DNA of 20,046 bases from Candidatus Rokuibacteriota bacterium. Its GTDB lineage: Bacteria > Methylomirabilota > Methylomirabilia > Rokubacteriales > CSP1-6. Location: the NCBI GenBank assembly GCA_016184305.1, contig JACPCX010000138.1, positions 1 through 20,046 of the forward strand, written 5' to 3'. The translations under genes were made by a program, and so were the position numbers. The notes beneath the pieces are model-generated. The model made no database searches. It was not told the DNA's origin and saw nothing but the letters and a program-made list of their open reading frames with translations. Each line of letters begins with the position of its first letter. Within the stretch, counting starts at the first letter, position 1. Below are positions 4,920-16,938 of the stretch, in pieces.

Positions 4920-6272
4920 ATGCCGACCTCATTAAAGCGTCTCCTGATCGCGCTATCGCTCCTGTACGCCGGTCCTCTGGCCCAGCCGGGCCAAGCGGCG
5001 GGGGAGCCGTACCCGTTTTCCCCCAGGAGCCTGGACGAGGCGGCCCTGATCCGATCCCCTGTGAATGAGCCTTCGGTTCCCGACTCTTACCGATCATTCG
5101 GCCTGGAGCTCGGTCATGCCCAGCCATTCGTGGAACACCAGGGGCCCGAGGATAGTTCCGAGGCTCGGCCGCTGGCGGGACCCCGGGAGCCCACCCTGGA
5201 CCCCGCACCAGGAGCCGCCTCCGCCTCGGTGGCTGTCTCTCCGTATGTCGTCCACGACCGCCCTGAGGTCCGGCACTTCGTTGACCGATTCCAGACGGGC
5301 TATCGTCGGGCTGTGGTGGAGCGCTGGCTGTCGCGATCCGGTCGGTACCTTGGGATGATCCGGGAGGTCTTCGCCCAGCGGGGGTTGCCCGAGGAACTCG
5401 TCTTCACCGCGATGATCGAGAGCGGTTTCGACCCGGTCGCCGTCTCGCGAGCGGGGGCCAAGGGCCTCTGGCAGTTCATGGCTCCGACCGCCCGCCGGTA
5501 CGGCCTGCGGGTAGACCGATGGATCGACGAGCGGCTCGATCCGGAGAAGTCCACGTGGGCCGCCGCCAGCTACCTCACGGATCTCTTCACGATGTTCGGC
5601 TCCTGGCACCTGGTCCAGGCGGCCTACAACGCAGGCGAGATGAGGGTCGCACGGGCCGTCCAGAGCAAGCAGACGAGCGATTTCTGGCAGCTCAGCCGAA
5701 CTCGCCTCTTGGCCGAGGAGACGAAGAGCTTCGTTGCCGCCACGCAGGCGGCGGCGCTGATCGGGCGGGAGCCTTACCGCTACGGCTTCTCCTTCACGCC
5801 CGAGGATCCGCTCCGCTACGAGGTCATCCAAGTTCCCCCCTCGACGACGCTCGAGCGCCTGGCCGGCATGTCGGGGATCGCGACTGCGAACCTGCGCCGC
5901 CTCAATCCGGAGCTTCGGCTCGCCCAGACACCGCCGGGGAAGCCCTATGCCTTGAAGGTTCCCGTGGGTGGTGAGGCGGCTGTGAGAGCGGCCTTCCAGA
6001 AGGCGGCGGCGGCAACCCTGATGGCCGCCACGAAGCGCGGCCGAGGCCGAGACGCCGCCACGACATCGCAGGCGCGGCCGCCGGCCCGGGGGGTCCATGT
6101 CGTCAAGGCGCAGGACACCGTGGGCGCCATCGCGAAGCGATACGGAGTGTCGGCGGCGGAGATCGTTCGGTGGAACCTGCTCTCCGCCGCCGGCCGGATC
6201 TTCCCAGGCGACAGGCTTCGCGTGGCGCGGGTCGCGCCCGCAGAGGAGGAGGGGCAGGGCGGTTTCAGGTGA
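4920..6272 (+). CDS. Lytic murein transglycosylase with LysM domains (MltD-like); start could be 4890
   Basis: Signal peptide; IESGF catalytic Glu, AKGLWQFM, DERLDPEKST and AAYNAG motifs; C-terminal LysM HVVKAQDTVGAIAKRYGVS. Confidence 0.92.
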   Translation: MPTSLKRLLIALSLLYAGPLAQPGQAAGEPYPFSPRSLDEAALIRSPVNEPSVPDSYRSFGLELGHAQPFVEHQGPEDSSEARPLAGPREPTLDPAPGAASASVAVSPYVVHDRPEVRHFVDRFQTGYRRAVVERWLSRSGRYLGMIREVFAQRGLPEELVFTAMIESGFDPVAVSRAGAKGLWQFMAPTARRYGLRVDRWIDERLDPEKSTWAAASYLTDLFTMFGSWHLVQAAYNAGEMRVARAVQSKQTSDFWQLSRTRLLAEETKSFVAATQAAALIGREPYRYGFSFTPEDPLRYEVIQVPPSTTLERLAGMSGIATANLRRLNPELRLAQTPPGKPYALKVPVGGEAAVRAAFQKAAAATLMAATKRGRGRDAATTSQARPPARGVHVVKAQDTVGAIAKRYGVSAAEIVRWNLLSAAGRIFPGDRLRVARVAPAEEEGQGGFR

Positions 6273-6511
6273 ACGTCCATGTCCGGCTTTTCGCCACCCT
6301 CTCAGCCTACCTTCCGCGGCTTGCCGGCGGAGACAGCCTGACCCTCGTGCTCGACGAAGGAGCCACGGTCGGACAGGTCATGCAGCTGCTCCAGATCCCC
6401 GAGGACTTCCCCTGCCTGACTGTGGTGAACGGTCGGGATGCAGGGCCCGAGAGAGTCCTCGCCGATGCTGACGTGTTGACCATGTTCCCGCCGCTCGCCG
6501 GGGGCGCGTAG
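6269..6511 (+). CDS. MoaD/ThiS family ubiquitin-like sulfur carrier (80 aa)
   Basis: GTGA overlap; VHVRLFATL, VVNG and FPPLAGG-A C-terminus. Confidence 0.88.
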   Translation: MNVHVRLFATLSAYLPRLAGGDSLTLVLDEGATVGQVMQLLQIPEDFPCLTVVNGRDAGPERVLADADVLTMFPPLAGGA

Positions 6512-8781: not shown

Positions 8782-9141
8782 ATGACCTCCACGGACGATC
8801 AGATCTACGAGCTGCACGCGAGCGTCTGCCAGATCCTGGCGAACCCCACGCGGCTGAAGGTCCTCAACGCGCTCAGGGAGCAAGAGATCGCCGTGGCGGA
8901 CCTGGCTCGACGCGTGGGGACCAGCATGCCGAACCTCTCCCAGCACCTGGCCATCCTTCGCCAGCGCGGCGTCGTGCTCACCCGGCGGGAGGGCGCCACC
9001 ATCCACTACCGGATCGCCAACCCAAAGATCCTCCGCGCCTTCGACATCATGCGCGAGGTGCTCTTCGAGCAGATCGCCGAGGGCCGGCGGCTCGTCCGGG
9101 CGGCCGGCGCCGGAGCCCGGCGGAGCCGGACGGCACGGTGA
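8782..9141 (+). CDS. ArsR/SmtB family transcriptional repressor
   Basis: LANPTRLKVL, VADLA, NLSQHLAILRQRGVV and RREGATIHYRI winged-HTH motifs; single Cys (C16). Confidence 0.93.
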   Translation: MTSTDDQIYELHASVCQILANPTRLKVLNALREQEIAVADLARRVGTSMPNLSQHLAILRQRGVVLTRREGATIHYRIANPKILRAFDIMREVLFEQIAEGRRLVRAAGAGARRSRTAR

Positions 9142-9145
9142 CGGG

Positions 9146-9502
9146 ATGCCGCGCCTCCTGACGTTCGTCCTGTCCGCCGGCCCCTACTCGGGCCAGGCCG
9201 CATCCAGCGCGCTGACGCTCGCGAGCGCGGCGCTGGGCGCCGGCCACCGGGCGACCATCTTCGCCACCGCCGATGGGGTCTCCGGCTTCGTGACGAAGCA
9301 GAAGACCGCCGGTGTCTTCGACGTCGGCGCGGCCGCCGCCGCCTTTCTCTCCCGCGGGGGCGACGTCCACCTCTGAGGGTCCTGCCTGCGATTCAGGGGA
9401 ATCGCCGAGGAGGATCTGCTGGCGGGGGCGATGGTCGGAAGTCTCTCGCGTCTCATGACGCTTCTTGGGGAGAGCCACGCCGTGCTCACCTTCGGGCGAT
9501 AG
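9146..9502 (+). CDS. Selenocysteine-containing DsrE/TusD/YchN-family sulfur relay protein (118 aa, U77 in UxxC)
   Basis: In-frame TGA 9374-9376 in VHL-U-GSCLRFRGI; the frame continues 41 codons in DsrE-like sequence (...GSLSRLMTLLGESHAVLTFGR) to TAG 9500-9502; SECIS-like hairpin follows. Confidence 0.9.
9377..9417 (+). promoter_or_regulatory. Bacterial SECIS element 1
   Basis: GCGATTC-AGGG-GAATCGC apical 7-bp stem with a G-rich loop 18 nt after the TGA; lower stem GGGTCCT/AGGATCT and CCT/AGG. Confidence 0.8.
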
Positions 9503-9512
9503 GGCGCGCCTC

Positions 9513-9878
9513 GTGCCGCGGCTCCTGTGCCTCGTGCTCGATCATGCCCCGTATGGCTCACTCCAGCCTGCGGAGGCGATCCGCCATGCCGGGGGGGCGC
9601 TCGGGAAGGGCTGGGAGGTCGTGCTCGCCTTCATGGGAGATAGCGTCTACACGGCGCTGCCGGGACAGGCGCCGCTGCCCGACGGGTGGCTGTCGCTGTC
9701 GGAGGCGCTCGGCGGGATCCTGGAGACGGGCGAGGAGCGAGTGCGAGTATTCGCGGACCAGGACTCCCTCGATGTCCGCGGGCTGTCGGCTGGCGAGCTG
9801 ATTCCCGGCGTGCATCCGGCGGCGGCTGGCGAGATCGCCTCCGCCATGGCCGCCTGCGACAAGACGCTGCTCTTCTGA
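9513..9878 (+). CDS. DsrF/TusC-like DsrE-family protein (121 aa; GTG start corrected from the track)
   Basis: LVLDHAPYGS, AFMGDSVY, DQDSLDVRGL and CDKTLLF motifs; lacks the central active-site Cys, as DsrF does. Confidence 0.8.
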   Translation: MPRLLCLVLDHAPYGSLQPAEAIRHAGGALGKGWEVVLAFMGDSVYTALPGQAPLPDGWLSLSEALGGILETGEERVRVFADQDSLDVRGLSAGELIPGVHPAAAGEIASAMAACDKTLLF

Positions 9879-9885
9879 GGATCCC

Positions 9886-10215
9886 GTGGCCTCGATCCTC
9901 CTGGCCCTGAGCAGCTCGCCGGAAACCCCAGCCGGGCAGCGGGCACTTGCCCTCGCCGGTTCCCTGGCAGATCAGGGGCATGCGCTCACGCTCTGCTGCC
10001 TGCAGGACGCCGTGCTCCTCGGCAGCGATCGTGCCCCAGGAGAGGCGCGAGCCCTGCTCGACAACCTGCTCGATCGGGGCGCACGCTGTCTGGTTCTCCG
10101 CGAGGACCTGCTCCTCCGCGGGCTTCAGGGCGGTGCGCGCGCCCTGACGGTGGACCACGCCGGCCTGATCGCGGCCCTGACCGCCAACCACGACCGGGTC
10201 ATCGGCGCCCTGTGA
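9886..10215 (+). CDS. DsrH/TusB-like protein
   Basis: LQDAVL, VLREDLLLRGL and VDHAGLIAALTANHDRVI match the DsrH/TusB pattern; third gene of a DsrE-fold triplet. Confidence 0.75.
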   Translation: MASILLALSSSPETPAGQRALALAGSLADQGHALTLCCLQDAVLLGSDRAPGEARALLDNLLDRGARCLVLREDLLLRGLQGGARALTVDHAGLIAALTANHDRVIGAL

Positions 10216-12557
10216 GACTGCCGCGCTTCTCGCTCGTTGAGTTCTCCGTCAGACATCCGAAGCTCGTCGTCTCTCTCACGGTCCTCGTCACCCTCGCGTT
10301 CATGACGCAGTTCCCGCGGATGAAGACAGATACGAATCCGAAGAACATGCTTCCGGCAACATCCGACGTCAGGGTATGGAACGATGAGGTGGACAAGACG
10401 TTCGCGCTGTACGAGGACATGATAGTCGTCGGGATCGCACGAGACGGCGGCGCGCTCAACAGCGAGACGCTCGAGAAGGTCGGCAGGATCACGAACGAAC
10501 TCCTCAAGATCAAGGGGGTTGCGGCGAGGGATGTCACCAGCTTCCCCACCATCACCAATGTCACTTCCGAGTCGGGCACCCTGAAGGTGGCGCCGCTCAT
10601 GGTGGCAGTCCCGAAGACGAAGGGCGACATCGAGAACCTCCGCACGTCGCTCTTCGAGAACCCGCTCTTCATCGATCGCATCATCTCGAAGGACGGGAAG
10701 ACGACGGCGATCTACGTTCCTCTCGAACAGGGGGCGAACGGCAGGGACGTGGCAGACCGGATACGGGAGATCGTGGGACGGGAGAAGGGGGACGAGAAGT
10801 ACTACATCGCGGGTGACCCTGTCGTCAGGGACACGTTCGGCGCAGAGATGTTCACGCTCATGGCGATCCTTGCGCCGATCGCAGGGATGATCATGCTCGT
10901 CGTCCGGTATGTCATGTTCAGGGACCTCTTCCTCTCCATCGTGCTGATGATGGATGCCATGATCAGCATAGTGTGGAGCATGGGGCTGCTCATAGCGCTA
11001 GGATTCCCGATTCACATCATGAGCTCCATGGCTCCCGTCTTCTTGATGGCCATCGCGACCGACAGCATTCACATCTTCAACGAGTTCTACTTCCGCTTCA
11101 GGGAGAAGCAGGACAAGACGGCGGCGATCATCGAGACCATGCAGGCGGTGGGCCGCCCCGTCCGCTACACCGCGCTGGCAACGGCCGCGGGCTTTGGAGT
11201 GCTCCTGTTCATGAGCATCGTGCCGGTGCAGGTCTTTGGAGGCCTGGTGGCATTCGGGACCGTGGCGCTGCGGATCCTGAGCTTCAGCTTCATCCCCGCC
11301 ATGTTCACCTTCGTGAAAGAGGCGAATATCGAGAAGGCGGCCCAGGGAGAAGACGTGTCGTCGAGCAGGACCTCGGTGTTCCTGAGGGCGCTTGCCGGAA
11401 TCGGTGCGTATCGACCCAGGACGACTGTTCTCGTGGGCCTCCTGCTGTGTGCGCTGGCGATCACGGGGATCACGCGGATTGTCGTGAACAACAACATGGT
11501 GGAGTGGTTCAAGAGCGGCAGCGAGATACGGGTGGCGGACGCGGAGATCAACAGGGCGCTCGGGGGCACGTCTCTCGGCTATGTGGTGGCAGTGTCGAAA
11601 GAGGAGGACTTCATCAAGACTCCTGAGGCACTGAAGTACATCGCGAATCTCCAGCGGCATCTGGAAACGCTGCCGGTCGTGGGGAAGACGTTCTCCGTCG
11701 CAGACTACGTGAAGAGGATCAACCGTGTCCTTCACAACGACGACCCCGCGTTCGCTGTCATTCCTGAGACAAAGGAGGCTGTGGGCCAATACCTGTTCCT
11801 GTTCAGCATGTCTGCGAAGCCGTCGGACCTGAACAATGTGGTCGATTACCCTTTCAGCAGGGCGAACATCTGGATTCAGCTCAAGACGTGGGATGCGCGG
11901 GCGATGGAGGAGGTCATCAGGGCGCTCGACGGCTACAAGAAGGCCCACCCGATTGCTCTGGAGCTCAAGCCTGCGGGCATCGCCTACTTCAACCTCGTCT
12001 GGAACCGCGAGGTTCTGTGGGACATGGTCACGGGGTTCCTGTTGGCCCTCATCGTGGTATTCGTCATCCTCGTCTTGAACTTCCGTTCCGTCAGGTGGGC
12101 CGTGGTGAGCTATGTCCCGCTCCTGTTCACGATTCTCCTCATCTACGGGGCGGTGGGATTCAGCGGCAAGCGGTTTGACATGCCCATCTCCGTGCTGTCG
12201 TGTCTGTCTCTCGGGATGGCGGTGGACTTCTCGATTCATTTCATCAGCAGGTTCAAGCAGAGACTGGCGGAGAGCAAGGAGCTCGGAGCTCGGAGATCAG
12301 ACGCCGACCTCATCACCGAGTCGTTGCTGTGGACTGCCGCGAGACCTGGCAAGGGAATCATGCGGAACGCGGTGCTGTTCGCGGCGTCTTTTGCGGTGAT
12401 GATGCTCGCGCCGCTGACGCCCTATGTCACCGTCGGTGCGTTCATCGTGAGCATGATGATGCTGAGCGCGCTCATGACGATGATCTATCTGCCGGCACTG
12501 ATCGTGTGGCTGCGAGGGTGGCTGTTTCCGGGAGGCCTGACATGGTCGCGGCAGTGA
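10212..12557 (+). CDS. MMPL/RND superfamily transporter
   Basis: 781 aa with a twofold TM+periplasmic repeat; IATDSIH and MAVDFSIH proton-relay-type motifs; GTGA overlap. Confidence 0.92.
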   Translation: MRLPRFSLVEFSVRHPKLVVSLTVLVTLAFMTQFPRMKTDTNPKNMLPATSDVRVWNDEVDKTFALYEDMIVVGIARDGGALNSETLEKVGRITNELLKIKGVAARDVTSFPTITNVTSESGTLKVAPLMVAVPKTKGDIENLRTSLFENPLFIDRIISKDGKTTAIYVPLEQGANGRDVADRIREIVGREKGDEKYYIAGDPVVRDTFGAEMFTLMAILAPIAGMIMLVVRYVMFRDLFLSIVLMMDAMISIVWSMGLLIALGFPIHIMSSMAPVFLMAIATDSIHIFNEFYFRFREKQDKTAAIIETMQAVGRPVRYTALATAAGFGVLLFMSIVPVQVFGGLVAFGTVALRILSFSFIPAMFTFVKEANIEKAAQGEDVSSSRTSVFLRALAGIGAYRPRTTVLVGLLLCALAITGITRIVVNNNMVEWFKSGSEIRVADAEINRALGGTSLGYVVAVSKEEDFIKTPEALKYIANLQRHLETLPVVGKTFSVADYVKRINRVLHNDDPAFAVIPETKEAVGQYLFLFSMSAKPSDLNNVVDYPFSRANIWIQLKTWDARAMEEVIRALDGYKKAHPIALELKPAGIAYFNLVWNREVLWDMVTGFLLALIVVFVILVLNFRSVRWAVVSYVPLLFTILLIYGAVGFSGKRFDMPISVLSCLSLGMAVDFSIHFISRFKQRLAESKELGARRSDADLITESLLWTAARPGKGIMRNAVLFAASFAVMMLAPLTPYVTVGAFIVSMMMLSALMTMIYLPALIVWLRGWLFPGGLTWSRQ

Positions 12558-12591
12558 GGAAAGCGCTGCCGAGTCCGACGGGAGGGAAGCG

Positions 12592-13404
12592 ATGGCTCTG
12601 AACAGGGCAGTGGCGGCTGTCATCCTCGCTCTGCTGGCGGTCTCCTGGCTGGCGCAGCCGTCGGCCGCGCAGCCTTCAGCGGACCAGATCATGTCACGCG
12701 CCCACCTGGCCATGTACTACCCCGGGGAGGATATGCGGGCGCGGGTCACGATGCGCCTGGTCTCGCGCGACGGCAAGGAGCGGCTTCGTGAGCTGACCAT
12801 GACGCGGCGGGACCTCCAGGACGGGGGGGAGCAGCGATACTTCATATACTTCCACCGGCCGCCGGACGTCCGGGACATGACGTTCCTCGTCTGGAAGTAC
12901 CCGGGCAAGGACGATGACCGCTGGCTCTACATTCCCGCCCTGAAGCTGGTTCGGCGGATCGCGGCCAGCGACAAGCGGTCGAGCTTCGCAGGCTCGGATT
13001 TCAGCTACGAGGACATCTCCGGGCGGGAGCCAGAGGAGGACACCCACAAGCTGATCAGGGAGGACAAGGCGGGCGCCCGGGATGCCTACGTCGTGGAGAG
13101 CGTCCCGAAGGACCCCGGCAGCGTGGACTTCGGGCGGAAGCTCTCGTGGATCGACAAGGGGAGGGGGCTGCCGCTCAAGGAGGAGTACTTCGATCGCCGG
13201 GGCGACCTGGCGCGGGTCTTCACCGCCGAGGAGATCACGGAGATCCAGGGTTTCTGGACGGTCACCAGGCGCGTCATGAAGAACGCACAGACCGGCCACT
13301 GGACAGAGGCGGTGCTGGCCGACGTGCGCTACAACCAGAAGCTCGCCCCCGATCTCTTCAGCGAGCGCGCGCTCCGAGCCCCCCCGACCGAGCTGGTGCG
13401 GTGA
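12592..13404 (+). CDS. Outer membrane lipoprotein-sorting (LolA-like) periplasmic protein
   Basis: GGGAGG RBS; signal peptide; PPDVRDMTFL, DDDRWLYIPALKLVRRI and FAGSDFSYEDI motifs. Confidence 0.9.
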   Translation: MALNRAVAAVILALLAVSWLAQPSAAQPSADQIMSRAHLAMYYPGEDMRARVTMRLVSRDGKERLRELTMTRRDLQDGGEQRYFIYFHRPPDVRDMTFLVWKYPGKDDDRWLYIPALKLVRRIAASDKRSSFAGSDFSYEDISGREPEEDTHKLIREDKAGARDAYVVESVPKDPGSVDFGRKLSWIDKGRGLPLKEEYFDRRGDLARVFTAEEITEIQGFWTVTRRVMKNAQTGHWTEAVLADVRYNQKLAPDLFSERALRAPPTELVR

Positions 13405-14672
13405 CAGGCCGCGCGGCGCTGGCGTGGCTCGCCGCCGCCGCGACCCTGGCGCTCGGGGGCGGTGCAGAGGCGGACGAGGACGGCGTCCCGCTCCACGGCT
13501 TCGTGCAGGCGGGGACGGCGTATCGGCTGATCCAGCCCGACCGATGCGCCCGCACCCAGCGGCTCGCCTGCAGGGAGCCCTTCGTCCTGGGCGAGGGCCG
13601 GGCCCGGGTCGAGTTGACGCCGCGGGGAGAGTGGTGGGGCCTCACCGCCAAGGGCGAGATGATCTTCGACGCGCTCGTGCCCGAGGTGGACGGGGAGCTG
13701 CGGGAGGGCTATCTCGACCTCGCGCTCGGGCCCCTGGACCTGCGTATCGGGCGCCAGGTCATCACCTGGGGCGTGGGGGACCTGGTCTTCATCACCGACG
13801 TCTTCCCCAAGGACTGGGTCGCCTTCATCGCGGGGCTCCCGCTCGAGTACCTGAAGAAGGGCTCGGACGCCGTCAGCGCCACGGGCCACTGGGCCGGGAC
13901 CTCGCTCCAGCTCGTCCTGATCCCTCGCTTCGAAACCGACACGCTCCCCGAGGCCGGCGGCCGGCTCGCCTTCCATGATCCCGCAGCAGCGGTGGAGCGG
14001 CGCTACACGGACGACCCCACGCCCTCGCTCGGCCACACGGAAGCCGGCGCGCGCCTGTCCCGCAACGTCCTCGGCTGGGACCTGTCGCTCTACGCCTATC
14101 GCGGCTTCTTCCACACGCCGGCCGGCGAAGTGGAGCCGGGACCACGACTCCGGCTCTTCTTCCCGCCGCTCAGCGTCTACGGCGCCAGCGCCCAGGGGGC
14201 CCTGCTGGGCGGCGTCCTGAGCCTCGAGGCGGGCTACTCGGATTCCCGCGACGATCGATCCGGAGGCAACGCGGCCGTCGAGAACTCCTCCGTGAAACTG
14301 CTCGCAGGCTACCAGCGGGAGGTGCTTCCGGACCTGACTCTCTCGGGCCAGTATACCGTCCACGTGATGGAGGACCACGGCGAGTACGTCCGGAGCCGGG
14401 GCCCGGGCATGCCGCGCCGGAGCGCCGCCCGGCATGTCCTGACCGCCCGGCTGACCCAGCTCCTGCTCCATCAGACGCTCCGGCTCGGCCTGTTCGGGCT
14501 GGCGAGCCCCAGCGACGGCGACTGGTATCTGGGGCCGGAGGCGCGGTACCAGATCACGGATGCCCTCTCGGCGACGCTGGGGCTGAACGTCTTCGGGGGC
14601 CCCCGCCGCAGCGACTACGGCCAGTTCGAGGGCAACTCGAGTCTCTACACCGTGGTCCGTTATGCCTTCTGA
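13401..14672 (+). CDS. Outer-membrane beta-barrel protein (DUF1302-like), 423 aa
   Basis: GTGA overlap; signal peptide; LREGYLD and LRIGRQVITWG; amphipathic strands; C-terminal VRYAF BAM-type signal. Confidence 0.8.
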   Translation: MTGRAALAWLAAAATLALGGGAEADEDGVPLHGFVQAGTAYRLIQPDRCARTQRLACREPFVLGEGRARVELTPRGEWWGLTAKGEMIFDALVPEVDGELREGYLDLALGPLDLRIGRQVITWGVGDLVFITDVFPKDWVAFIAGLPLEYLKKGSDAVSATGHWAGTSLQLVLIPRFETDTLPEAGGRLAFHDPAAAVERRYTDDPTPSLGHTEAGARLSRNVLGWDLSLYAYRGFFHTPAGEVEPGPRLRLFFPPLSVYGASAQGALLGGVLSLEAGYSDSRDDRSGGNAAVENSSVKLLAGYQREVLPDLTLSGQYTVHVMEDHGEYVRSRGPGMPRRSAARHVLTARLTQLLLHQTLRLGLFGLASPSDGDWYLGPEARYQITDALSATLGLNVFGGPRRSDYGQFEGNSSLYTVVRYAF

Positions 14673-14901: not shown

Positions 14902-15627
14902 ATGGAGGCGTCGCGGCTGGAGTTGCCCGGGGGCGGGCAGTTCGACACGCTCGCGCCCGCATACGACGCCTGGTACGACACCCCGCTCGGCAGGGTCGTG
15001 GATCGACTCGAGAGCGGGGCGGTGCTCGGCCTCGTCGGCGAGGGGCCTGGTGCCTGGGCGCTCGACCTGTCATGCGGGACGGGGCGCTACGCCCTTGCCC
15101 TAGCGCGCCGGGGCCTGAGGGTCGTGGGGGTGGACATCTCCGAGCCCATGCTCCTCGTCGCGCGCGCGAAGGCGCGCGAGGCCGGGTGTGACCTCCGCCT
15201 CGTCAGGGCCGACGCGCGAGCGTTGCCCTTCCGAGCGGGCACTGTCGATCTCGTGACGATCATCCTCGGGCTCGAGTTCGTTGGCGAGCCGCGAGGCGTC
15301 CTGGAGGGATGCCATCGTGTCCTGGTGCCGGGCGGGAGCCTCGTGATCGCGATCCTGAATCGCGCGGGACTCTGGACCGTCTGGCGCCGGCTGAAGCGCC
15401 TCGTGGTTCCCTCCGTCTGGGGTGGCGCGACCTTTCTCAGCCCCGCCGAGCTGGGCGACCTGCTGCGTGCCCGCGGTTTCACCGGGCTGCGGTGGCGCGA
15501 CGCGGTACACTTCTTACCGCTCCTCGGGCGCAGACGGGTGGGCTGGCTCGAGCGCTGGGAGGCGATCGGCGCTCGGTGGATGCCTGGACGGGCGACCTTC
15601 GTGGCGGTGGCGGCGCGGCGCGCATAG
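14902..15627 (+). CDS. Class I SAM-dependent methyltransferase
   Basis: YDAWYDTPLG, LDLSCGTG, GVDISEPML, ADARALPF and RVLVPGG motifs. Confidence 0.92.
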   Translation: MEASRLELPGGGQFDTLAPAYDAWYDTPLGRVVDRLESGAVLGLVGEGPGAWALDLSCGTGRYALALARRGLRVVGVDISEPMLLVARAKAREAGCDLRLVRADARALPFRAGTVDLVTIILGLEFVGEPRGVLEGCHRVLVPGGSLVIAILNRAGLWTVWRRLKRLVVPSVWGGATFLSPAELGDLLRARGFTGLRWRDAVHFLPLLGRRRVGWLERWEAIGARWMPGRATFVAVAARRA

Positions 15628-15789: not shown

Positions 15790-16938
15790 ATGGCGACCAC
15801 GGTGATCCTGGGGGGCGGAGTCGGGGGTCTCGTCACCGCCAGCACGCTGAGGCGCCGGCTCGACCGGACGCACCGCATCATCCTGGTCGAGCGCCAGCGC
15901 CAGCACGTCTTCACCCCCTCCTTCCTGTGGATGATGCTCGGCTGGCGCGAGCCCCACGAGATCGCCCGTGACCTCGCGAGCCTCGAGCGCAAGGGGATCG
16001 AGGTCGTCCAGGACGAGATCCGCGAGATCGATCCCGTTGCGCGTCAGGTGAAGACCGAGCGCCGCACGCTCTCCGGCGACTACCTCGTCCTGGCGCTTGG
16101 CGCCGAGGGGTGGCTCGGCGGCATCCCGGGCCTGGCCAGCGCCGGCCACAACGTCTACGATCTCGAGGGCGCGCTGGGGCTGCGCGATGCCCTGCGCCAG
16201 TTCCGCGAGGGGCGCGTGGCGGTGCTCATCGCGGGGCTGCCGTTCAGGTGCCCGGCGGCGCCCTACGAGGCCGCCATGCTGATCGAGGCCTCGCTCAGCC
16301 GGCGCGGGCTTCGCGAGCGGGCGCAGGTGGACGTCTACACCCCCGAGACGCTGCCCATGCCCGTCGCGGGCCGCGCGATGGGGGAAGCCGTGAAGGGGCT
16401 GGTCGAGAGCCGCGGGGTCGGCTTCCATCCACAGCACAAGGTGGTGGCCGTGGATCCGGAGCGGCGGGAGCTGGCGTTCGAGAACGGCGCCAGGGCTGGC
16501 TACGACCTGCTCGTCGTGATCCCGCCGCACCGGTGCGCCCCCGTCGTGAAGGAGGCGGGGCTCACCGTCGAGCCCGGCTGGGTGCCGGTGGACAAGGGGA
16601 CGCTCCAGACGAGCTACGAGCGCGTCTTCGCCATCGGGGACACGACGCTGATCAAGTTGCCCGTGGGGCTGCCGCTGCCGAAGGCGGGCGTCTTCGCCCA
16701 TGGCCAGGGCGAGGTGGTGGCCGAGAACATCGCCGCGGAGGTCGCCGGAGGGAGCGGCGCGCGGCGCTTCGACGGCTTCGGCTCCTGCATCATCGAGATG
16801 GGCCACGGGGTGGCCGCCTACGCGAAGGGCAACTTCTACGCGGAGCCCGCGCCCGCGATGACGATGCGCTCGCCGAGCCGGCTCTGGCACTGGGGGAAGA
16901 TCTACTTCGAGAAGCGGTGGCTGCGGCGGTGGTTCTGA
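15790..16938 (+). CDS. Sulfide:quinone oxidoreductase-like FAD-dependent disulfide oxidoreductase (type III SQR-like)
   Basis: GGGVGG Rossmann motif, FRCPAAPYE, FAIGD, LPKAGVFA, distal Cys in GSCIIEMG, C-terminal amphipathic WHWGKIYFEKRWL. Confidence 0.85.
   Translation: MATTVILGGGVGGLVTASTLRRRLDRTHRIILVERQRQHVFTPSFLWMMLGWREPHEIARDLASLERKGIEVVQDEIREIDPVARQVKTERRTLSGDYLVLALGAEGWLGGIPGLASAGHNVYDLEGALGLRDALRQFREGRVAVLIAGLPFRCPAAPYEAAMLIEASLSRRGLRERAQVDVYTPETLPMPVAGRAMGEAVKGLVESRGVGFHPQHKVVAVDPERRELAFENGARAGYDLLVVIPPHRCAPVVKEAGLTVEPGWVPVDKGTLQTSYERVFAIGDTTLIKLPVGLPLPKAGVFAHGQGEVVAENIAAEVAGGSGARRFDGFGSCIIEMGHGVAAYAKGNFYAEPAPAMTMRSPSRLWHWGKIYFEKRWLRRWF

Follow-up and report, generated by a model that had tools for sequence, protein, structure and literature searches.

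The question raised by this locus is whether a short open reading frame in the window (the whole 20,046-nt stretch of Candidatus Rokuibacteriota DNA analyzed here) ends at its TGA codon or continues through it as a selenoprotein gene, and, if the latter, what its product might do. The frame opens with an ATG at 9146 on the forward strand and runs for 76 codons to a TGA at 9374–9376, the sole in-frame TGA within 9146–9502; past this codon the same frame reads GSCLRFRGIAEEDLLAGAMVGSLSRLMTLLGESHAVLTFGR up to a TAG at 9500–9502, 10 nt short of the GTG (9513) that starts the following gene, all of it as an earlier note on this DNA had located it. The read-through product of 118 residues (9146..9502, + strand; 118 codons, with U77, followed by the TAG) matched the Pfam DsrE family PF02635 at 70.3 bits in a profile search (cut-off 22.7), and the alignment joins residues 5–116 to profile positions 3–116 of 116, spanning the TGA, which bears out the earlier claim of a full-length DsrE protein. 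In the AF2 model of this product (pLDDT 89.7), the predicted active site U77-G-S-C80, a UxxC motif in which the TGA supplies the first residue, is at the end of strand β4 and the start of a helix. The in-frame TGA almost certainly encodes selenocysteine (Sec), and we consider it very probable that 9146–9502 as a whole is one intact gene with a DsrE/YchN fold and Sec at the UGA of codon 77. What the analysis itself brings to light is the gene structure, a Sec/Cys pair, protein-coding constraint before as well as after the TGA, signs of RNA constraint in a hairpin, the fold and the neighborhood. A gene split in two, the tail having its own start, was considered and rejected: downstream of the TGA, ATG first occurs in frame as M95, a position at which the other orthologs have Q, R, S or N, and the DsrE domain spanning the TGA also speaks against it.

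The most conservative explanation is that the TGA is a genuine stop, leaving a 76-residue truncated DsrE fragment or pseudogene followed by an accidental open frame. Gene callers agree with such a reading, and 34 of the 38 database homologs are calls of 72–83 residues, cut at the TGA, as the earlier note had predicted of standard annotation; no NCBIfam model was found that would rescue the truncated call. TGA is, in addition, the normal stop of this genome, and searches of its assembly did not recover selA, selB or tRNA-Sec, a point taken up below. The comparative evidence runs the other way. Across this genome and eight relatives (61–99% identity), the alignment crosses exactly one in-frame TGA in nine of nine close orthologs, and with named MAGs added the TGA stands at codon 77 in all 17 non-redundant close orthologs, which are mostly from Rokubacteria/Methylomirabilota MAGs. 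The 41-codon tail is open in every one of these 17. Over tail codons +11 to +38, pS was 0.516 and pN 0.181, a ratio of 0.35, with pN below pS in 36/36 pairs; the part upstream of the TGA gave a pN/pS of 0.34; purifying selection on the tail thus equals that on the head.

The residue found in place of Sec is equally informative. Among 19 compared loci, 15 have TGA and four have TGC, the latter being more distant homologs from other phyla with the motif ELCGSCL. In an alignment of 147 family representatives, Cys occupies position 77 in 131, CxxC is present in 118, and seven sequences end exactly at residue 76. U-G-S-C is invariant in 13 aligned sequences, and one further ortholog reads U-G-T-C. 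The occurrence of TGA in close orthologs and Cys in distant homologs therefore constitutes a classic Sec/Cys pair, so that the Cys/TGA alternation at residue 77 anticipated in the earlier note is indeed present; Cys in all close homologs, which the same note had named as grounds for abandoning the idea, is not what was found. With an open and selected tail, a DsrE domain and fold that require both halves of the protein, and Cys at the TGA position in homologs, termination at the TGA is scarcely credible. The practical value of the Sec reading lies in annotation, this gene of soil and groundwater Rokubacteria/Methylomirabilota being recorded as a 76-residue ‘DsrE family protein’.

Bacterial SECIS elements are described in PMC1088965, in the passage bearing on them, as stem-loops directly 3′ of the UGA whose small apical loop includes G, and the 7-bp stem beginning 12 nt past the TGA agrees with this description. 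The SECIS-like stem-loop, delimited by folding and synonymous constraint, covers 9377..9417 (+ strand), with a lower stem of 9377–9383 paired to 9411–9417, an upper stem of 9388–9394 paired to 9399–9405, and the apical loop AGGG at 9395–9398. The hairpin GCGATTC-AGGG-GAATCGC (9388–9405), pointed out previously as following the TGA and sitting atop a longer stem, is present as described, including the G-rich 4-nt loop that begins 18 nt past the UGA. The loop is AGGG in 14 of 16 full-length TGA-form sequences, CGGG in one and CGTG in one, and an incomplete 17th form also has AGGG. The 7-bp stem is intact in sequence in 16/17 TGA forms and missing from three of four TGC forms, and the prospect of a hairpin not conserved in homologs, likewise raised against the Sec reading at the outset, was thereby dispelled. 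Selection on the RNA is further suggested by synonymous codon choice: over codons +1 to +10, the codon differed in 49 of 352 same-amino-acid pairs (0.139), compared to 0.30–0.47 in five other codon windows, and the hairpin holds fixed CGA, AGG and GGA, which make up 8.7%, 10.7% and 9.7% of their codon families in this genome (4,625 codons).

Folding energetics and covariation contribute less. The single-sequence fold was no better than chance, with 69/200 dinucleotide shuffles at least as stable (z = –0.37), and the folding check proposed for the hairpin thus came out negative for one sequence; the support that exceeds chance is accordingly comparative, namely the TGA of the orthologs, the synonymous constraint and the selection on the tail. 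The full 7-bp hairpin is not in the minimum free energy fold of 3/17 TGA forms, and one Cys form (L053) also forms a hairpin at the corresponding place, indicating that hairpin potential is not specific in this GC-rich DNA. Upper-helix cells are 99.1% paired across 16 sequences, the upper helix being without any variation; covariation counting over these 16 sequences gave no signal (172/500 shuffles matched the observed pairing), and the lower helix has a sole compensatory pair, which 8/16 of them leave unpaired. An Rfam scan of 9100–9600 at E ≤ 10 returned no SECIS family and two chance matches only (E 4.3 and 7.4). In mechanistic terms, decoding of the UGA would be directed by a bacterial-type SECIS consisting of the 7-bp GC/AU stem, the AGGG loop and the extending lower stem, and SelB with Sec-tRNA(Sec) would, by analogy with other bacteria, bind this hairpin. 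The lack of covariation or Rfam support to mark the hairpin as a SECIS is a point in favor of a second explanation, in which the UGA is read through without Sec, by near-cognate Cys or Trp insertion or other recoding, and the hairpin is merely a stimulator of read-through.

This second explanation also draws on the Sec-insertion genes, none of which was found in the assembly. A search for selA, selB, selC and selD, as suggested in the earlier note, recovered selD (345.7 bits), but nothing above cut-off was found in this assembly for selA (PF03841, TIGR00474), for selB (TIGR00475) and the SelB-wing domain (PF09106), or for tRNA-Sec (aragorn and the Rfam model, best 44 bits against a cut-off of 47). 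A genome without selA, selB and selC had been listed there as contradicting the Sec reading, and formally this is the state of the 88.8%-complete assembly. The selD gene that was found has one in-frame TGA itself, reading ...AACAG-U-ASK..., at what we take to be the catalytic position of SelD; beyond this UGA comes an 8-bp stem with its 4-nt loop 21 nt downstream, a geometry like that of the DsrE-like gene. Four of the seven CMD/AhpD matches in this genome also carry an in-frame TGA, three of them at CxxU. The assembly comprises 3.2 Mb and 25 tRNAs, compared to 4.7–5.4 Mb for congeners, and relatives carry a compact tRNA-Sec/selA/selB locus: among related genomes, selA exceeds its cut-off in 36/41 and tRNA-Sec is present in 36/41, and selB adjoins selA in five of five genomes tested. 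None of the eight relatives carrying the TGA gene lacks both selA and tRNA-Sec, and each of the two is found in seven of the eight.

The DNA of this genome matched neither the 12-kb selA–selB block of the closest congener nor the 6-kb sel contig of a second; for the sel locus of a third, only parts of the upstream flank matched, at the very starts of two contigs, where synteny is not kept, and a clean contig break at the sel locus is consequently not demonstrable. Given the small and incomplete assembly, the absence of the entire 12-kb block, and the TGA-containing SelD and four AhpD-like genes, the missing selA, selB and tRNA-Sec are best read as an assembly gap. Two further candidates were set aside. 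A match to the selB N-terminus at the end of another contig proved to be EF-Tu after a tRNA cluster, and genome-wide recoding of TGA was rejected because TGA is the stop of 12 among the 14 other genes of the window that were checked, an observation that also weighs against the second explanation. Together with the hairpin of SelD, the AhpD-like genes, the Sec genes of relatives that carry the gene, and the typical Sec/Cys pairing of the site with an active-site Cys in homologs, this makes read-through without Sec very unlikely. The reading of the TGA as Sec, as originally put forward, is upheld by the TGA in 17/17 orthologs, the Cys of distant homologs, the tail pN/pS and the sel genes in relatives.

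Selenoproteins of this kind have been catalogued since the mid-2000s, and the finding is in this respect sound but ordinary. The Sargasso Sea selenoproteome (PMC1088965) lists a DsrE-like selenoprotein (Pfam02635, UxxC), another is listed for Desulfovibrio vulgaris (PMC1794560), and passages of reviews from 2022 (PMC9312934) and 2026 (PMC13188914) include the family, with WP_014524487.1 as an example; the earlier note was correct in stating that such proteins had been reported. By its PF02635 domain and UxxC motif, rather than by orthology, the gene is a member of this catalogued family; no Desulfovibrio sequence is among the 38 database matches. It has in common with the catalogued proteins the Pfam family, the UxxC motif, the Sec/Cys pair at the first Cys, and the small G-containing apical loop. 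It differs in heading a DsrEFH-like cassette in Rokubacteria/Methylomirabilota, whereas the literature passages on the family give it no gene context or function, and those in reviews call it uncharacterised. A MAG with 63 predicted selenoproteins is mentioned in a passage of PMC13188914, and the present gene adds to the evidence for a large selenoproteome in this phylum.

Among proteins of determined structure, E. coli YchN (1jx7) is both the best PDB sequence match (E 3.1e-4, 24% identity) and the best structural match to the AF2 model (TM 0.88, rmsd 1.8; 117 versus 118 residues). Its C-K-T-C aligns with U-G-S-C, which agrees with the proposed alignment of the TGA with the first Cys of the YchN CxxC, YchN having Cys in place of Sec. 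To our knowledge, DsrF-like and DsrH-like partner genes are not a feature of ychN. Such partners are found here: judged from sequence and gene order, the DsrE-like gene is the first of a divergent three-gene DsrE/DsrF/DsrH-like cassette, completed by a DsrF/TusC-like second subunit gene (9513..9878, + strand; Pfam DsrE family 44.1 bits) and a DsrH/TusB-like third subunit gene (9886..10215, + strand; Pfam DsrH 21.7 bits against 24.4). The cassette recurs with the right sizes and order in 9/9 orthologous loci, the F and H partners matching weakly, and a CC pair of the DsrH-like protein is conserved within the Sec-form clade. E. coli TusBCD (2d1p) and Allochromatium vinosum DsrEFH (2hy5) are likewise encoded by three consecutive small genes in D/E-, C/F- and B/H-like order, and they share the fold of the DsrE-like protein (TM 0.84 to TusD and 0.87 to DsrE). 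Alignment of the TGA with the TusD Cys was also obtained, weakly (E 0.042), at position 90 of 140 in 2d1p chain A, which corresponds to native Cys78 provided that an N-terminal tag accounts for the 12 extra residues; the residue alignment to A. vinosum DsrE covers residues 8–50 only. In this weak alignment TusD has a single Cys at the site, compared to the CxxC-type motif of the family considered here. All three cassette genes also fall far below the TusBCD/DsrEFH equivalog cut-offs (22.4 against 89.25 for TIGR03012, 25.4 against 94.15 for TIGR03010, and 22.3 against 49.2 for TIGR03011; NF001237, 19.9 against 92, for the DsrE-like protein), and the DsrE/TusD-type label in the earlier note must be dropped insofar as it implies a bona fide TusD or DsrE. 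The neighbors are different as well: an ArsR regulator, an RND export module, a methyltransferase and an SQR-like gene.

The regulator gene (8782..9141, + strand) encodes an ArsR/SmtB-family protein with a single Cys (Pfam HTH_5, 48.3 bits; NCBIfam HTH_metalloreg, 84.7 bits) and lies directly upstream of the cassette in five of nine orthologous loci. Sensors of the BigR, SqrR, SoxR and sHdrR type use two Cys, unlike the ArsR protein of the window, for which BigR is the best specific NCBIfam match, at 58.5 bits against a cut-off of 155. Farther downstream, a type-III-like sulfide:quinone reductase (SQR) flavoprotein is encoded at 15790..16938 (+ strand; Pfam Pyr_redox_2 and FCSD_central), with PDB SQR matches down to E 1.1e-31 and an NF049943 score of 233.7 bits against a cut-off of 525. 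Between it and the export module is the gene for a SAM-dependent methyltransferase (14902..15627, + strand; profile match to Methyltransf_11, UbiE-like), orthologs of which adjoin the cluster in three relatives (G015, G028 and G033) and the Cys-form cassette in one locus. Both the SQR-like gene and the methyltransferase gene are downstream of the cassette in the window and in G015; within the examined stretch of G027 and G028, the SQR-like gene was not seen. An SQR-like gene adjoins the cassette in 4/4 Cys-form loci of other phyla, with 47–52% identity to the window SQR, and in three of these ArsR is upstream and the SQR-like gene sits between ArsR and the cassette. In the Sec-form clade, a 4.5-kb export module separates cassette from SQR. 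The new detail is that an ArsR regulator and a type-III-like SQR accompany the cassette across phyla; the cassette is Sec/Cys-switching, and the tie extends to at least four other bacterial lineages. The SQR-like gene was itself weighed as a second selenoprotein, because its best NCBIfam match is a selenoprotein subtype, and was rejected: its TGA follows the C-terminal tail, and read-through would enter the next gene. No persulfide dioxygenase or rhodanese was detected among the scanned ORFs.

With this linkage, a selenoprotein family that reviews call uncharacterised acquires a proposed function that can be tested. ArsR-type sulfane-sulfur-responsive repressors are reported, in passages of PMC12423496, PMC10451225 and PMC13122954, to control sulfide and sulfur-oxidation operons, and the BigR, SqrR, SoxR and sHdrR systems share with this locus an ArsR-family regulator at the head of a cluster that includes an SQR-type flavoprotein. 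The DsrE-like protein would accept sulfane sulfur from the linked type-III-like SQR, probably within a DsrEFH-like hetero-oligomer whose three subunits are suggested by homology and gene order. The sulfur would be held as an Se–S(n) adduct on U77 and resolved by Cys80, in the setting of an ArsR-controlled cluster for the handling of sulfide or reactive sulfur. We put this role as an SQR-fed sulfane-sulfur acceptor at slightly short of an even chance. Several observations sit awkwardly with a sulfane-sulfur function: DsrC/TusE (PF04358) has no match in this 88.8%-complete genome, the four TusA matches are all on other contigs, and ArsR has one Cys. The distance of SQR from the cassette in the Sec-form clade and its not being seen in G027 and G028 belong with these.

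The principal competitor accepts the Sec but assigns UxxC another chemistry, either a redox-active selenenylsulfide in a thiol–disulfide oxidoreductase or selenium handling in the manner of YedF, rather than an SQR-fed persulfide carrier. DsrE-like proteins are listed, in passages of PMC1088965 and PMC1794560, among thiol-based redox proteins, with UxxC as the redox motif, tables in PMC1794560 grouping the family with thiol-oxidoreductase homologs and not with sulfur carriers, and YedF's DsrE-like domain has CGxC and is linked to selenium use (a passage of PMC5322559). The YedF comparison is weakened by the absence of a YedF family match at E ≤ 0.01 in NCBIfam. The presence of both cysteines in 118/147 family representatives, as opposed to the single Cys of TusD, and a genome with no DsrC/TusE acceptor would also suit redox chemistry, whereas both the fold and the aligned nucleophile agree with sulfur-carrier proteins, partner genes of DsrF-like and DsrH-like type are conserved, and the SQR-like gene adjoins the cassette in all four Cys-form loci. 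Redox or selenium-handling chemistry therefore retains a sizeable minority chance.

If the protein is a sulfane-sulfur acceptor, the genes that follow the cassette could indicate where the sulfur goes. An MMPL/HAE3-type RND transporter (10212..12557, + strand; Pfam MMPL 95.9 bits; TIGR00921 189.8 bits, below cut-off), which shares its first 4 nt with the end of the DsrH-like gene, follows the cassette in 8/9 loci, the ninth ending at a contig end. The export module continues with a LolA-like periplasmic protein (12592..13404, + strand; Pfam LolA_like 212.3 bits), conserved after MMPL, and a DUF1302-like putative outer-membrane protein (13401..14672, + strand), which has no Pfam or NCBIfam match, has an Atlas feature score of 0.99 to DUF1302-bearing clusters, and is conserved in seven of 16 loci searched. 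It is conceivable, though unlikely, that the Sec-bearing DsrEFH-like complex is a dedicated acceptor of SQR-made zero-valent sulfur or selenium and passes the hydrophobic chalcogen, possibly once the linked methyltransferase has methylated it, to the MMPL/LolA-like/DUF1302-like exporter in Rokubacteria. Such a system would represent a previously undescribed selenoprotein-dependent route for sulfur or selenium export out of a diderm cell.

The DsrE-like gene at 9146–9502 (forward strand) is, on the comparative sequence evidence, a real selenoprotein gene that has been mis-annotated, and a further member of a catalogued DsrE-like family. As read from the sequence, the annotated frame runs from ATG 9146 to TGA 9374–9376 (76 codons), beyond which 41 further codons stay open to TAG 9500–9502, with the GTG that opens the next gene following after 10 nt; these coordinates agree with the earlier note. 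The 118-residue read-through product matches Pfam DsrE (PF02635) with 70.3 bits (profile positions 3–116 of 116), and because this match spans residues 5–116, the domain requires both halves around the TGA. An AlphaFold2 model, built from an alignment of 13 sequences, has a mean pLDDT of 89.7 and most closely resembles YchN (TM 0.88) and A. vinosum DsrE (0.87) in the PDB, with further matches to DsrF and E. coli TusD (both 0.84), consistent with the full-length fold proposed earlier. In the model, residue 77, encoded by the TGA, closes a predicted strand (73–77) directly ahead of a helix (78–83). As previously suggested, this residue lies opposite the first Cys of YchN CKTC (alignment E 3.1e-4) and, in a weak alignment (E 0.042), opposite the TusD Cys, residue 90 in a chain of 140 and equivalent to native Cys78 provided that the 12 additional residues represent an N-terminal tag. 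The alignment to A. vinosum DsrE ended at residue 50, short of this site.

A six-frame search of the source genome (G000, MAG GCA_016184305.1) and 40 relatives recovered close orthologs (61–99% identity) in nine genomes, G000 and eight relatives from several genera and families. Each match crosses exactly one in-frame TGA and reaches residue ~117, with L-U-G-S-C-L at the same codon in all nine, so the TGA is neither unique to this assembly nor replaced by Cys in the close homologs. Scanning named genomes yielded 19 loci, 15 with TGA (Rokubacteria- or Methylomirabilota-labelled MAGs, three bearing only the label 'uncultured bacterium', and a 4-kb contig from an Actinomycetota bin) and four with TGC (Armatimonadetes, Gemmatimonadales, Sphaerobacteraceae and one unclassified bacterium). 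With duplicates removed, 17 non-redundant TGA forms stand beside the four TGC loci, and the anticipated Cys/TGA alternation at residue 77 is thereby seen. In a database of 5.8 billion proteins, 34 of 38 homologs are 72–83-aa calls ending at the TGA, the truncation expected of standard annotation; the remaining four are full-length (116–119 aa, 44–52% identical) and carry ELCGSCL. Searching 1.84 billion representatives with a profile gave 1,012 relatives at E ≤ 0.001. Among 147 aligned from the best 150 of these (three proteins >200 aa omitted), position 77 is Cys in 131, another residue in seven and gapped in two (fragments), seven proteins stop exactly at residue 76, and CxxC occurs in 118. 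Substitution patterns indicate that the tail is protein-coding: codons +11 to +38, counted downstream from the TGA, have pS 0.516 and pN 0.181 (ratio 0.35), with pN below pS in 36/36 pairs, and the 70 codons upstream of the TGA have a ratio of 0.34. The earlier observation holds, and this TGA very probably encodes Sec. Genome-wide TGA recoding was excluded, since among 14 other genes checked in the window 12 have TGA as their stop.

The hairpin described earlier, GCGAUUC-AGGG-GAAUCGC, lies at 9388–9405 (+), above a lower stem formed by 9377–9383/9411–9417 (+), and its G-rich loop does begin 18 nt past the TGA. We here put the RNA-level constraint on this putative SECIS into numbers. Across codons +1 to +10, the codon differs in only 49 of 352 same-amino-acid pairs (0.139), compared to 0.30–0.47 in five other windows; pS is likewise low there, 0.155 versus roughly 0.5. 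The frozen codons CGA, AGG and GGA, which form the stem and loop, are minority choices, supplying 8.7%, 10.7% and 9.7% of their respective families over the 4,625 codons of 14 supported genes in the window. Across 16 sequences, 99.1% of upper-helix cells are paired, and the hairpin is missing in three of four TGC forms. The G000 SelD gene has the same geometry, an 8-bp stem and 4-nt loop 21 nt downstream of its UGA. As a single sequence, the fold was equalled by 69 of 200 shuffles (z = –0.37), and covariation among the 16 sequences did not rise above shuffles (172/500); the upper helix is invariant, and the sole compensatory pair is unpaired in 8/16. No Rfam family matches the hairpin, and the minimum free energy fold lacks the full stem in 3 of 17 TGA forms. 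The Armatimonadetes Cys form, with TGC, also makes a hairpin at the SECIS place (L053:2329–2400; 8 bp, 4-nt loop, –31.2 kcal/mol), which could be a fossil SECIS or merely GC-rich folding.

The G000 assembly comprises 3.2 Mb in 239 contigs, in which aragorn found only 25 tRNAs. The search for Sec machinery that the earlier note had proposed was borne out for selD; selA, selB and tRNA-Sec gave nothing over cut-off in this 88.83% complete genome. SelD (G000:C18:28407–29345, minus strand; TIGR00476, 345.7 bits) is interrupted by a single in-frame TGA (...YAACAG-U-ASKMGP...) at what we take to be the position of catalytic Cys17 of E. coli SelD; its hairpin loop reads GAUC. G000 thus has a Sec-containing SelD though selA, selB and selC are unassembled. 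Four of its seven CMD/AhpD-domain matches (L061, L062, L063 and G000:C8:3421–3591) also contain an in-frame TGA, three as CxxU (NCFDU, GCTSU, ACTYU) and the fourth as NTHU, without Cys. Across 41 genomes, including G000 and the unpublished G012, selA and tRNA-Sec each exceed cut-off in 36 and usually lie about 1.4 kb apart, and selB directly follows selA in 5/5 genomes tested. All eight relatives with the TGA gene have selA or tRNA-Sec (7/8 for each). The absences in G000 are most plausibly explained by an assembly gap, because its congeners have 4.7–5.4 Mb and a 12-kb stretch of the relative G001 (selA-selB plus about 7 kb of neighbours) finds no matching G000 DNA.

A DsrF/TusC-like gene (9513–9878, +) and a DsrH/TusB-like gene (9886–10215, +) complete the cassette; all three products score far under the TusD, TusC and TusB equivalog cut-offs. 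Beyond them lie genes for an MMPL/HAE3 RND transporter, LolA-like and DUF1302-like proteins (the last label being an Atlas lead), a methyltransferase and a type-III-like sulfide:quinone reductase (SQR). The E-F-H cassette occurs at 9/9 orthologous loci, followed by MMPL in eight (the ninth ends at a contig edge) and preceded by ArsR in five; G015 reproduces the entire order. In the Cys-form loci of other phyla, an SQR-like gene (47–52% identical to the window's) adjoins the cassette in 4/4 and ArsR lies upstream in 3/4, and on this basis the core common across phyla is ArsR, SQR-like and DsrEFH-like genes. One Cys-form locus (L057) also has a methyltransferase, and another (L054) a TauE sulfite exporter further along. 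The Rokubacteria clade carries the export module as an insertion. Only in the Sec-form clade does this envelope module (MMPL/HAE3 RND, LolA-like, DUF1302-like; 10212–14672), whose gene starts overlap preceding stops (GTGA), separate the DsrEFH-like genes from the paired methyltransferase and SQR genes.

The family itself is known: PMC1088965 lists a 'DsrE-like protein, Pfam02635, UxxC' selenoprotein family from the Sargasso Sea (two sequences and a SECIS figure), and PMC1794560 lists it for Desulfovibrio vulgaris, in line with the earlier statement that such selenoproteins had been reported. Reviews of 2022 and 2026 include it and term such families functionally uncharacterised (PMC9312934, PMC13188914); the latter also cites a Methylomirabilota MAG for which 63 selenoproteins were predicted. 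To this we add the linkage, through gene context, to SQR and ArsR. Because the ArsR, SQR-like and DsrEFH-like core recurs across phyla, the DsrE-like protein would accept sulfane sulfur downstream of SQR, a role we put forward tentatively. The chief alternative is a redox function of the UxxC motif, under which literature tables group the family. A classical DsrEFH/TusBCD relay fits G000 poorly, in that DsrC/TusE was not found in the 88.83% complete genome and its four TusA genes are all on other contigs.

Further observations concern the surrounding genes. The SQR-like flavoprotein (15790–16938) has 'type III sulfide quinone reductase, selenoprotein subtype' as its top NCBIfam match (233.7 bits, cut-off 525), with Cys where that subtype might have U and an apparently true TGA stop. 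The LolA-like protein also matches DUF1329 weakly. A ThiS/MoaD-family protein (6170–6511, 32.4 bits), 2.6 kb upstream of the cassette, ends in ...PPLAGGA, a sulfur-carrier Gly-Gly tail followed by a single extra residue; no activating enzyme was seen adjoining its gene. Two Sec-form loci appear rearranged: DsrF-like and DsrH-like matches overlap at L042:1328–1633, as if partly deleted or fused, and at L067:3620–5280 (G033) the MMPL match breaks off after residue 539, directly beside a 30-residue piece of SQR. The 4,043-nt contig binned as Actinomycetota carries a TGA-form ortholog (76% identity) together with its ArsR, which probably reflects mis-binning and possibly gene transfer. Finally, an adjacent Cys pair (LTLCCLQD) in DsrH-like proteins and a C-terminal Cys (A-C-D/E-K/R-T/A-L) in DsrF-like proteins each occur in 9/10 Sec-form sequences and 0/3 Cys forms.
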